The notes under the pieces were generated by a model, which saw only the letters and a program-made list of their open reading frames with translations, was not told the DNA's origin and did no database searches. The position numbers and the translations under genes are program-made. 45,329 bases of DNA from a virus (lineage: Duplodnaviria > Heunggongvirae > Uroviricota > Caudoviricetes): the IMG/VR virus record IMGVR_UViG_2541047734_000008, positions 1 through 45,329 of that record, one strand, 5' to 3'. Shown one piece after another: positions 36,017 to 36,326 of this stretch. How positions within the stretch are numbered: position 1 is the stretch's first letter; every line of letters begins with the position of its first letter.

Positions 36017-36091
36017 CTGGAGCGGGCAGCGGGAATCGAACCCGCATCATCAGCTTGGAAGGCTGAGGTAATAGCCATTATACGATGCCCG
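36017..36091 (-). tRNA. tRNA-Gly (anticodon UCC)
   Basis: Manual fold: 7-bp acceptor GCGGGCA/TGCCCGC, anticodon stem TCAGC/GCTGA, loop CTTCCAA, T-loop TTCGATT, 3' CCA encoded. Confidence 0.8.
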
Positions 36092-36094
36092 CAT

Positions 36095-36170
36095 ATGGTG
36101 CCGACTACCGGAATCGAACTGGTGACCTACTGATTACAAGTCAGTTGCTCTACCTACTGAGCTAAGTCGG
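36095..36170 (-). tRNA. tRNA-Thr (anticodon UGU)
   Basis: Acceptor GCCGACT/AGTCGGC, anticodon loop CTTGTAA, T-loop TTCGATT, CCA encoded. Confidence 0.75.
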
Positions 36171-36172
36171 CA

Positions 36173-36249
36173 CTGGACCGCCACCGGGGACTCGAACCTC
36201 GCACACTCAACTTAAAGGGTTGACGCTCTTTCCTGATGAGCTAGTGGCG
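36173..36249 (-). tRNA. Atypical tRNA-like gene, anticodon UUU (Lys) by position, with C at position 33
   Basis: Acceptor CCGCCAC/GTGGCGG, anticodon stem TCAAC/GTTGA, loop CCTTTAA, T-loop TTCGAGT with one T-stem mismatch, CCA encoded. Confidence 0.5.
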
Positions 36250-36250
36250 G

Positions 36251-36326
36251 CTGGTGGCCCTTGCTGGATTTGAACCAGCGACCTGGCGATTATGAGTCGC
36301 TCGCTCTCACCACTGAGCTAAAGGGC
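36251..36326 (-). tRNA. tRNA with CAU anticodon (Met or lysidine-modified Ile2)
   Basis: Acceptor GGCCCTT/AAGGGCC, anticodon loop CTCATAA, T-loop TTCAAAT, CCA encoded. Confidence 0.75.

Follow-up and report, generated by a model that had tools for sequence, protein, structure and literature searches.

Genes for tRNAs downstream of the antiterminator gene Q are a textbook feature of lambdoid phages. The closest described arrangement is the ileZ-argN-argO array of Shiga-toxin (Stx) phages, with Q immediately preceding it and the late/lysis (or stx) genes after it; one O157 Stx2 prophage has Q, tRNA-Ile, tRNA-Arg, tRNA-Arg, and stx2A in succession. The lambdoid/P22-like phages 21 and SfI also have tRNA genes in this slot, those of SfI being Asn and Thr tRNAs, and codon-bias arguments have been published for tRNAs downstream of Q (PMC3636060). 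The phage 21 tRNA-Thr(UGU) gives protection from P2 Old, a nuclease whose substrates must have CNG motifs paired within the anticodon stem (PMC12445682).

Other relevant systems concern the host tRNA-Lys(UUU), a cleavage target of AriB and PrrC and, secondarily, of P2 Old (PMC12409363, PMC2610378, PMC12445682). AriB of the PARIS system cuts E. coli tRNA-Lys at C40|A41 and requires U39, A41 and U16, and phage T5 escapes it by means of a variant tRNA-Lys (PMC12409363, PMC11464382). PrrC cleaves 3' of U33 (PMC2610378). In eukaryotic and mitochondrial tRNA remolding, amino-acid identity is altered by anticodon substitution and the body stays nearest to its old family (PMC3923123, PMC4783518). The cytoplasmic initiator tRNA-Met of multicellular eukaryotes has a natural C33 and is functional, and C33 controls t6A37 formation in it (PMC8887486).

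A four-tRNA array between Q and the lysis genes

The window analyzed here is the whole 45,329-nucleotide stretch of the viral record IMGVR_UViG_2541047734_000008. ARAGORN finds exactly four tRNA genes in these 45 kb, all on the minus strand, in the transcription order Ile2(CAU), Lys(UUU), Thr(UGU), Gly(UCC), spanning 36018-36327, with spacers of 3, 2, and 1 nt (Gly/Thr, Thr/Lys, and Lys/Ile2, respectively). The first-pass annotation had described four tightly packed tRNAs, 1-3 nt apart, with anticodons CAU, UUU, UGU, and UCC, lying between Q and the lysis genes, and this description is borne out in full, the anticodons from ARAGORN being the same, Q being identified by Pfam and the lysis genes by PGAP names in a 99.6%-identical prophage. 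Its coordinates (36017-36326) placed the locus rightly but were off by one, and it gave no strand. The features are listed below in the direction of transcription.

36522..37211, minus strand: Q antiterminator gene (Pfam PF06323 Phage_antiter_Q, E=8.3e-92), just upstream of the array in the transcription direction
36510..36538, minus strand: promoter-like site TTGCAA-17-TATATT, a candidate pR' at the Q end (consensus scan, 9/12 matches; putative assignment)
36429..36464: hairpin rich in GC with A/T runs on both sides, resembling a terminator on either strand (arms 36429-36443 and 36450-36464)
36337..36365, minus strand: second promoter-like site, TTGCAA-17-TATTAT (consensus match only)
36252..36327, minus strand: tRNA-Ile2, anticodon CAU, lysidine type, reading AUA, CCA encoded (ARAGORN; Rfam, 72.5 bits; PGAP tRNA-Ile)
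36174..36250, minus strand: atypical tRNA, nominally Lys(UUU), slot 2, CCA encoded (ARAGORN; Rfam, 44.4 bits)
36096..36171, minus strand: tRNA-Thr(UGU) (ARAGORN; Rfam)
36018..36092, minus strand: tRNA-Gly(UCC) (ARAGORN; Rfam)
35886..36011, minus strand: two inverted repeats with perfectly matched arms, in the transcribed spacer that follows tRNA-Gly (11-nt arms 35966-35976/36001-36011; 16-nt arms 35886-35901/35943-35958)
35795..35813, minus strand: hairpin resembling a terminator, GCCCGC-TTTT-GCGGGT with a T run behind it, located after the array and before the holin gene
34138..35725, minus strand: lysis cassette, downstream of the array (ORFs and PGAP names in the 99.6%-identical prophage)
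35510-35725, minus strand: holin (PGAP name in the same prophage)
35191-35505, minus strand: YdfR/DUF1327 (PGAP name; Pfam DUF1327)
34602-35135, minus strand: lysozyme (PGAP name in the same prophage)
34138-34620, minus strand: Rz-like (PGAP name in the same prophage)

The four tRNAs were checked with the Rfam covariance model RF00005, whose gathering score is 29 bits, and all lie above this cut-off (Thr 73.8, CAU 72.5, Gly 64.9, and Lys 44.4 bits), with E-values of 2e-14 to 2.5e-06 that are far beyond chance. Covariance-model scoring, named in the first-pass annotation as what could overturn its reading, does not reject the UUU tRNA and leaves the anticodons unchanged. The CAU tRNA is labelled Met/CAU by ARAGORN and tRNA-Ile by PGAP; judged from the PGAP call and its identity to K-12 ileX (68/76 positions, with a compensatory 6:67 change), it is a lysidine-type Ile2 for AUA and not a Met tRNA, and it is the homologue of Stx-phage ileZ. 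The Thr and Gly members equal host thrU over all 76 nt and host glyT over all 75 nt, respectively, and in neither case are the host flanks kept. About 460 of 5,426 complete E. coli genomes contain the whole array, under the PGAP labels Ile/Lys/Thr/Gly; it is a real, widespread, and previously annotated four-tRNA set belonging to the late operon of a lambdoid E. coli prophage, and lysogens with the exact array include E. coli 20Ec-P-124, APEC IMT5155, and S. flexneri SFBU1023. As a cluster it is ordinary, tRNAs downstream of Q being textbook and the array being annotated already in hundreds of genomes; its odd member is worth testing but is not a new kind of element.

In a near-identical prophage PGAP names the Q gene "bacteriophage antitermination protein Q," and the hairpin at 36429..36464 is a candidate tR' that would be read through by Q-modified polymerase. 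The second promoter-like sequence, which also precedes the array in other loci, is followed by the GC-rich stretch CCTGCGCCC, which ends at the first base of tRNA-Ile2, and it could be the array's own promoter. Transcription would proceed on the minus strand by Q-antiterminated polymerase, possibly from the array's own promoter too, with RNase P and 3' trimming presumably releasing four tRNAs, each with an encoded CCA, and the inverted repeats after tRNA-Gly possibly having a role in RNA processing or stability.

Structure and ancestry of the slot-2 tRNA

The UUU tRNA is third in plus-strand coordinates and second in transcription order, and is here called slot 2. Its anticodon loop, C32-C33-U34-U35-U36-A37-A38, has 7 nt and A37 but has C rather than U at position 33, and so departs from the canonical rule of U33 plus a purine at 37 in its U33 requirement. 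The T stem consists of C49-G65, G50-C64, an A51.C63 mismatch, G52-C62, and G53-C61, so that both oddities reported in the first-pass annotation, C33 in the loop CCUUUAA and the T-stem mismatch A51·C63, are present. The tRNA also has C1-G72, U73, and A20, and its tertiary nucleotides are all intact (U8, A14, G18, G19, A21, and the T loop UUCGAGU); it passes RF00005 with E=2.5e-06, and both ARAGORN and PGAP label it tRNA-Lys. Alternative loop registers giving the anticodon UUA or CUU are excluded, because the 5-bp stem UCAAC/GUUGA leaves exactly seven nucleotides for the loop and UUU is placed at 34-36 by ARAGORN and Rfam alike. A tRNA-His-like G-1 is also excluded, the base preceding C1 being G here and A in other loci.

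The UUU anticodon is the main identity element for LysRS, and U34-U35-U36 of slot 2 matches E. coli tRNA-Lys(UUU). The body is another matter, with only 40/76 positions identical to lysT, all five anticodon-stem pairs different, and U73 as discriminator where E. coli tRNA-Lys has A73. Over its full length slot 2 is instead 80-90% identical to argN-type tRNA-Arg genes, and because of this resemblance and the lack of relationship to host tRNA-Lys it is a phage scaffold whose anticodon has shifted from Arg to Lys, UCG or UCU on an argN-family tRNA having become UUU. The scaffold is present in 2,145 of 5,426 complete E. coli genomes, and for this reason slot 2 is an accessory and not a core tRNA.

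The first-pass remark that the locus mirrors that of Stx phages can be strengthened from position to homology, since Ile2 and slot 2 together share 90.9% identity across 207 nt with ileZ-argN of Stx2 phages, and by sequence this is the same locus as ileZ-argN-argO. Both arrays lie directly downstream of Q, begin with an Ile2(CAU) homologue, and have a second gene on the argN scaffold, but slot 2 has the anticodon UCG in the Stx array and UUU with C33 in the window. The Arg anticodons UCG and UCU of slots 2 and 3 of the Stx arrays are absent from the window array, which in place of argO and stx has the copies of host thrU and glyT; as had been reported, there is no toxin gene at the locus. In PPompW prophages slot 2 agrees at its 3' end with O157 argN, and an Arg tRNA comes next, a pattern that suggests recombination breakpoints inside slot-2-type tRNA genes; the PPompW paper does not mention tRNAs. 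In some prophages a second scaffold-type element, absent from the window, lies ~0.9 kb downstream.

Slot 2 resembles the cases of tRNA remolding in that identity appears to have changed through the anticodon, but those are known from cellular and organellar genomes, whereas here a prophage array is concerned in which one scaffold segregates UCG, UCU, and UUU, plus 8-nt and non-canonical loops. With Arg-UCG, Arg-UCU, Lys-UUU, and non-canonical loops all carried by one unchanging phage scaffold, the slot varies in nominal amino-acid identity and would make a clear prokaryotic case of an alloacceptor anticodon shift.

Ribosome binding by tRNA-Lys(UUU) relies heavily on anticodon-loop modifications. 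Slot 2 has the U36-A37-A38 of t6A37 substrates, but it has C33, and the E. coli TsaBCDE enzymes are unable to place t6A37 on a U33C tRNA, as shown with tRNA-fMet U33C (PMC8887486). By analogy, C33 should block t6A37 formation on slot 2 in E. coli, and for this reason the tRNA is probably a less efficient decoder. The eukaryotic initiator tRNA-Met shares C33 with slot 2, but it is an initiator and its t6A enzymes tolerate C33, whereas slot 2 is of elongator type in a host whose TsaBCDE rejects U33C. The same CCUUUAA loop occurs in seven unrelated phage tRNA-Lys(UUU) genes that score 53-70 bits with Rfam. C33 is not specific to Lys among phage tRNAs: among the matches listed, 1.3-4.7% of unselected tRNAs on viral contigs have it, with many anticodons. 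The recurrence of C33 beside UUU in unrelated phages and its expected effect on t6A in E. coli tie a single nucleotide to a possible trade-off among modification, decoding, and nuclease escape.

Nuclease determinants and a possible spare tRNA-Lys

Slot 2 has G39, U40, U41, and C16 where the AriB site has U39, C40, A41, and U16, and its anticodon stem UCAAC/GUUGA contains no CNG motif, so that, as read from the gene, substitutions are found at all known determinants of AriB and P2 Old. C33 also alters the nucleotide at the junction where PrrC cleaves. Published work on PrrC determinants at position 33 gives the cleavage site only, 3' of U33, and data on the cleavage of U33C were not found; for the yeast gamma-toxin, U33C is without effect. 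T5's tRNA-Lys(UUU), too, is phage-encoded, with the host tRNA-Lys anticodon and altered AriB positions (A39, C41, and C16 in T5; G39, U40, U41, and C16 in slot 2) (PMC12409363). The two differ in that resistance and rescue have been demonstrated for T5 and would be predictions for slot 2, and in that slot 2 has an Arg-type scaffold, C33, and U73 and belongs to a temperate prophage from which it is often lost.

The most likely reading, which we hold tentatively, is that slot 2 is a working but non-essential spare tRNA-Lys without known nuclease determinants. The window allele would be charged with lysine through its UUU anticodon, its body and anticodon stem lack any determinant known for AriB and P2 Old, and it would be useful only once host tRNA-Lys is depleted. 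The three ordinary members, Ile2 for AUA and the exact mature-length copies of thrU (ACA/ACG) and glyT (GGA/GGG), would meanwhile boost decoding of codons whose use in the phage is 1.5-1.9 times that in the host. A spare tRNA-Lys mattering only under host tRNA-Lys depletion would also explain the loss of slot 2 from several prophage sublineages. Several observations stand against the spare tRNA-Lys, namely C33 in place of the U-turn uridine, U73, the fact that AAA/AAG are not rare, the high diversity of slot 2, and the disabled sister alleles. Lacking all known determinants of the host-tRNA-Lys nucleases, the Lys version offers a cheap and direct test for T5-type counter-defence in temperate E. 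coli phages.

The array as a whole is not built for nuclease evasion, because its Thr member has the sequence of the nuclease-sensitive thrU, and P2 Old is hardly countered by extra host thrU (PMC12445682). In phage tRNA-Thr genes that do protect, the anticodon stem is altered, whereas the window tRNA-Thr, an exact copy of a sensitive host gene, retains the CNG motifs and the U36-A-A-U-C-A41 AriB site. No PADLOC match to a defence system was found among eight window proteins, including a solitary GNAT and QueH, and these proteins give no sign that the prophage has a tRNA-targeting system of its own. A broader proposal, which we consider improbable, is that C33 defines a recurrent adaptive class of phage tRNAs that avoid t6A37, evade anticodon-loop nucleases cutting at or reading U33 (PrrC-type), and decode well enough for lytic growth, and that in this prophage the slot-2 tRNA might also set the G:GT frameshift ratio at the A AAA AAG site considered below.

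Variation at slot 2 and the alternative readings

The main rival to the spare tRNA-Lys, somewhat unlikely but to be taken seriously, is that the window allele is a relic, recently inactivated or nearly so in a dispensable slot and retained at no cost since it is flanked by useful tRNAs. The combination of C33 and the T-stem A.C gives slot 2 the lowest Rfam score of the array (44.4 vs 65-74 bits), the C33 that blocks t6A addition by the E. coli enzymes (PMC8887486) adds to this, and lysine codons require no supplementation. The O157 argN, however, has the same A.C mismatch and scores 43.0 bits, and yet hundreds of Stx phages keep it; in the window allele all tertiary-contact nucleotides are intact, and the C33-UUU loop recurs in the seven otherwise high-scoring phage tRNA-Lys genes.

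The population data can also be read both ways. Slot 2 is the most changeable member of the array, and several sublineages carry disabling mutations. It has 14 segregating sites and the other members have 6, 8, and 8, which is a trend only (p=0.064), and in a comparison restricted to 8 collinear loci its diversity of 0.039 equals that of neighbouring intergenic DNA (0.034), as a relic would predict, but lies below the 0.127 at four-fold degenerate sites of adjacent genes (p=0.04). Sister alleles with U8C, a U12 deletion, G18A, or G24A/U are unannotated by PGAP and undetected by Rfam, and such recurrently disabled alleles account, among the matches listed, for about half the C33-lineage copies that complete E. 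coli genomes contain. Degenerate slot-2 elements occur in other prophages as well, with an 11-nt loop and broken T arm, or with 6-nt and 8-nt loops. Against these signs of decay, the stem changes of the C33 lineage run 7:1 toward retention of pairing (seven C-to-U changes opposite G and one G-to-A), a compensatory 4:69 change separates the two Lys alleles, positions 33-38 are invariant in 48 related loci, C33 included, and IMG/VR has the window allele more often than any other form; in the same lineage a C63U change restores the A.C mismatch to a pair. Of the two possibilities raised in the first-pass annotation, a non-canonical tRNA or a pseudo-tRNA, the non-canonical cloverleaf stands, and pseudo-tRNA may still apply, the window allele looking intact but its sister alleles being clearly disabled. 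Were slot 2 a relic after all, the locus would still illustrate the rapid turnover of phage tRNA slots.

On a wider scale, across 17 distinct alleles of the slot-2 scaffold, 97.8% of cells in the cloverleaf are paired compared with at most 53.5% in slid controls, four pairs are altered on both sides, and the observed covariation score was reached by 0/500 shuffles. From these compensatory changes, the scaffold cloverleaf is under selection.

Less probable than a relic is plain codon supply, in which all four tRNAs would raise capacity for AUA, ACA, GGA/GGG, and AAA/AAG with C33 neutral and no role in defence. Compared with a K-12 control region, the window ORFs use more AUA (8.0 vs 4.3 per 1000 codons), ACA (13.3 vs 8.5), GGA (12.7 vs 8.7), and AAA+AAG (55.9 vs 40.5), and AUA, ACA, GGA/GGG, and AAA/AAG are all enriched (OR 1.2-1.9, p 1e-3 to 7e-9), in keeping with the published codon-bias arguments for tRNAs downstream of Q (PMC3636060); the occurrence of C33 across many anticodons in viral contigs, among the matches listed, is compatible with its being neutral. 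The strongest enrichments, however, are those of AGA (3.8x) and AGG (6.6x), for neither of which the array has a tRNA, so that Arg tRNAs have in effect been traded for Lys, Thr, and Gly. Extra supply is least needed for lysine codons, at least four host tRNA-Lys genes lie in one locus, and a tRNA-Lys unable to receive t6A would be a poor gain in capacity.

Slippage on A AAA AAG is influenced by the condition of the anticodon loop of tRNA-Lys, and a very unlikely reading is that slot 2 alters the programmed -1 frameshift in the prophage tail-assembly chaperone genes G/GT, at a slippery site decoded by tRNA-Lys(UUU) in both ribosomal sites. The G ORF ends GAG GTT AAA AAA AAG TAG, a -1 slip on A AAA AAG (9519-9513) enters the T ORF, and in a region that is 98.7% identical PGAP names the two genes tail assembly chaperone and protein T, but the support is at the level of coincidence; A AAA AAG is common in phage G/GT genes, and the tail and tRNA modules recombine independently. 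That slot 2 is no tRNA at all, being instead a cloverleaf by chance or some other element of RNA or DNA (a recombination site, for example), as the breakpoints suggested by PPompW might hint, is effectively refuted by the Rfam score (E=2.5e-06) and the cloverleaf covariation, and full-length homology to annotated tRNA-Arg genes also speaks against it. A scan of species-representative genomes returned six loci only, and E. coli and Shigella flexneri were the sole species in it with the C33 allele.

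The tRNA array and its surroundings

By ARAGORN, the 45-kb window contains four tRNA genes, all on the minus strand, with spacers of 3, 2, and 1 nt and with CCA encoded in each gene, in agreement with the first-pass annotation, which had described a cluster of four spaced by 1-3 nt. That annotation located the cluster correctly, although its coordinates were shifted by one base and the strand was left unstated, and the atypical UUU tRNA that it called the third is third in plus-strand order but second when counted along transcription (here, slot 2). The C33 and the T-stem mismatch that it reported for this tRNA are both real, with an anticodon loop of C32-C33-U34-U35-U36-A37-A38 and the mismatch at A51·C63, and the covariance-model check that it proposed does not reject the gene, which scores 44.4 bits against a cut-off of 29; its interpretation as a whole holds.

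Array genes (ARAGORN, with Rfam tRNA model scores) and upstream and downstream features of the window
36018-36092, minus strand: tRNA-Gly(UCC), 64.9 bits
36096-36171, minus strand: tRNA-Thr(UGU), 73.8 bits
36174-36250, minus strand: tRNA-Lys(UUU), 44.4 bits
36252-36327, minus strand: CAU tRNA, 72.5 bits
36522-37211: Q, Pfam match
End of Q: promoter-like site (consensus scan, pattern match only)
36429-36464: terminator-like hairpin (consensus scan, pattern match only)
Ending 10 nt ahead of tRNA-Ile2: second promoter-like site (consensus scan, pattern match only)
35795-35813: terminator-like hairpin (consensus scan, pattern match only)

The CAU tRNA, a tRNA-Ile by PGAP, matches K-12 ileX at 68/76 positions with a compensatory change at 6:67, and is a lysidine-type AUA decoder, the counterpart of Stx-phage ileZ. 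The Thr and Gly genes are identical at every base to K-12 thrU and glyT, with the likeness limited to the mature tRNA bodies: host flanks and spacers are not kept, and the thrU-glyT gap, which contains tyrU plus 124 nt in the host, is TAT in the array. Such body-only identity would be compatible with gene conversion by the host genes or with the capture of already processed tRNA sequences.

Over 31.0-42.4 kb, the window shares 99.6% identity with a prophage of E. coli 20Ec-P-124, whose PGAP gene order is RusA, Q antiterminator, tRNA-Ile, tRNA-Lys, tRNA-Thr, tRNA-Gly, class II holin, YdfR, lysozyme, and Rz. Past tRNA-Gly, the transcribed stretch ahead of the holin gene contains two perfect inverted repeats (35886-36011), one with 16-nt arms and a 41-nt loop and the other with 11-nt arms and a 24-nt loop. 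Of 5,426 complete E. coli genomes, 463 contain the entire 551-bp array region (461 records), in most cases at ≥99.6% identity, and three sequenced coliphages have it too. The sequence is therefore common and already annotated, and the array belongs to a familiar class of element, with nothing outside known categories.

Origin of the slot-2 gene

The window UUU tRNA is unrelated to host tRNA-Lys: just 40 of its 76 canonical positions agree with lysT, none of the five anticodon-stem pairs is shared, and its acceptor end has C1-G72 and U73. Its full-length identity to genes annotated as tRNA-Arg is 80-90%, among them Stx2-phage argN (84% and 80.5% classes) and the UCU tRNA-Arg of strains PMV-1 and Nissle 1917 (89.6%). 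The slot-2 family is accessory, since only 2,145 of 5,426 E. coli genomes have any member. Its body is near-constant (C1-G72, U73, A20, T loop UUCGAGU), and it carries a series of different anticodon loops.

Anticodon loops on the slot-2 body
CUUCGAA: Arg UCG (argN), Stx phages
CUUCUAA: Arg UCU, PMV-1 and Nissle 1917
CUUUUAU: Lys UUU with U33 but U38, strain 2012C-4221
CUUUUUAU: 8-nt loop, ARAGORN anticodon 'tttt', E. coli M18 (L009 501-578)
CCUUUAA: UUU with C33, window
11-nt loop: PGAP 'tRNA-OTHER', strain 2011C-4315 (L011 501-582)
6-nt loops: unassigned, Salmonella diarizonae, Citrobacter amalonaticus

An odd anticodon arm is also found on the same body in Edwardsiella hoshinae, and the 6-nt or odd arms of the non-E. 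coli hosts are at L132 2762-2835, L137 2-75, and L136 1226-1302. The genes with non-canonical loops (8, 11, or 6 nt, or the odd arm) may be decaying, or may encode tRNA-like RNAs with another role. In a scan anchored on the neighboring Ile2 gene, which imposes no selection on slot 2, the slot-2 scaffold always lies downstream of Ile2, with ~95 Arg-UCG and ~49 C33-UUU copies, another ~24 that are plainly degenerate, and a small number of other forms. In a comparison of 17 distinct 77-nt alleles, 97.8% of cloverleaf cells are paired compared with at most 53.5% with slid partners, four pairs are changed on both sides, and the observed covariation score is unmatched by any shuffle. The slot-2 family is a real tRNA family; the window gene, with its C33, is an argN-family member that has undergone an alloacceptor anticodon shift from Arg to Lys.

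A G3.U70 acceptor pair, the classical AlaRS identity determinant, is present in argN of an O157:H7 Stx2 prophage (L010 501-577) and in slot 2 of the PPompW prophages (L002 3202-3277; L005 501-576). The PPompW slot-2 gene has a 3' end identical to O157 argN and is followed by an Arg tRNA, which suggests a recombination junction inside this tRNA gene. Some related prophages have a second element ~0.9 kb downstream of the array (L036 1479-1560; also L064, L080, L120, and L131), with acceptor and T arms as in slot 2, a long odd anticodon arm, and a weak Rfam tmRNA-clan match (19.4 bits); this element is absent from the window.

Position 33 and the state of the window allele

The E. coli TsaBCDE system is unable to put t6A37 on a U33C tRNA (PMC8887486), and the strict t6A motif is U36-A37-A38 (PMC13276492). 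Because of C33, the window tRNA-Lys should lack t6A37 despite having U36-A37-A38, and in the U33 Lys allele of 2012C-4221 the motif is broken another way, by U38. PrrC cleaves tRNA-Lys 3' of U33 (PMC2610378), and we found no data in the literature for its action on a C33 substrate. A C33-Lys pattern search of viral contigs, from which the slot-2 family was excluded, recovered the same CCUUUAA loop in seven distinct tRNA-Lys(UUU) genes on 11 contigs (52.9-70.1 bits), which are from large phages whose remaining tRNAs have U33. Outside the search pattern, C33 occurs in 21/443 and 8/623 viral-contig tRNAs among the matches listed, with many anticodons. Among phage tRNAs, C33 is infrequent yet recurs, which makes the window gene less odd and more likely to be usable.

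Some environmental large-phage contigs from this search have CUA-anticodon (amber-reading) tRNAs (L226 5238-5310, L229 4621-4693, L222 9986-10060, L227 11429-11503), two of which are also C33 (loop CCCUAAA). On an unrelated phage contig, a GOLLD RNA (L224 6441-6915, Rfam 159.2 bits) lies directly upstream of a C33 tRNA-Lys.

We tentatively favor the reading that window slot 2 would be a functional spare tRNA-Lys, insensitive to nucleases and useful under certain conditions. All of its tertiary-contact nucleotides are intact, and among IMG/VR alleles it is the commonest. Among 48 loci carrying the four-tRNA array, positions 33-38 are invariant, stem changes comprise seven C-to-U opposite G compared with one G-to-A, and C63U restores pairing at A51·C63, a mismatch shared with O157 argN (43.0 bits). 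Pair 4:69 is C-G in one Lys allele and U-A in the other, and in eight collinear loci slot-2 diversity is 0.039 compared with 0.127 at four-fold degenerate lysis-gene sites (p=0.04). A relic is the main rival reading and the less probable one. In the same eight loci, slot-2 diversity equals that of the adjoining intergenic DNA, and across the 48 loci slot 2 has 14 segregating sites versus 6, 8, and 8 in the other array tRNAs (p=0.06). Sister alleles carry U8C (8/48 loci), a U12 deletion (O157 PPompW prophages), G18A, or G24A/U. The PPompW and AR24.2b forms are unannotated by PGAP in RefSeq, have no Rfam match at E≤1, and make up about half of the C33-lineage copies in an evenly spaced listing of complete genomes, a proportion inflated by clonal sampling. 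Slot 2 is therefore dispensable in many lineages.

Possible roles

Plain tRNA dosage with a neutral C33 is improbable, and minor readings share the remaining weight. Compared with a 50-kb K-12 region, the window ORFs are enriched in AUA (1.9x), ACA (1.6x), GGA (1.5x), GGG (1.6x), AAA (1.2x), and AAG (1.9x), and most strongly in AGA (3.8x) and AGG (6.6x), for neither of which the array has a tRNA; codon supply is a reasonable fit for Ile2, Thr, and Gly and a poor fit for Lys.

As for nucleases, PARIS AriB cuts host tRNA-Lys(UUU) at C40|A41, requiring U39, A41, and U16, and also cleaves tRNA-Thr(UGU), and T5 evades it via variant tRNAs (PMC11464382, PMC12409363). P2 Old takes the anticodon arm off thrU and, at a lower rate, attacks other tRNAs in which CNG motifs are paired; rescue against it comes from resistant tRNA-Thr(UGU) genes of phages, phage 21 among them, and not from additional host thrU (PMC12445682). 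From its G39, U40, U41, and C16 and its lack of a CNG motif, the window tRNA-Lys is predicted to be insensitive to both nucleases. Unlike the resistant tRNA-Thr of phage 21, the window Thr copy has the sensitive sequence of the host gene, and the defense reading therefore covers slot 2 only. The locus offers a clean and inexpensive route to questions of phage tRNA counter-defense and of position 33.

The tail-assembly chaperone genes contain a dnaX-type -1 slippery heptamer, A AAA AAG (9519-9513, minus strand), which is read solely by tRNA-Lys(UUU); the G ORF (9510-9896) ends GAG GTT AAA AAA AAG TAG, and the -1 frame enters the T ORF (9208-9498). A link between this site and the variant tRNA-Lys of the prophage is speculative. 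The nin region of this array-carrying phage encodes a tRNA-modifying enzyme, the epoxyqueuosine reductase QueH (39464-40150, minus strand; Pfam PF02677, 1e-65), which serves queuosine modification of position 34 in tRNAs with GUN anticodons. Just past the lysis cassette, and facing the late operon, lies a lone GNAT acetyltransferase gene (33474-33959, plus strand) with only a generic Acetyltransf_1 Pfam match, no PADLOC match, and no obvious upstream antitoxin ORF; some known GNAT toxins act by acetylating charged tRNAs. Two other RNAs are usual cargo of Qin/Rac-like prophages: a sok antitoxin RNA (39221-39396, minus strand; Rfam 111.9 bits), beside the position of PGAP hokD in a near-identical prophage, and the DicF sRNA (44877-44928, plus strand; Rfam 76.7 bits).
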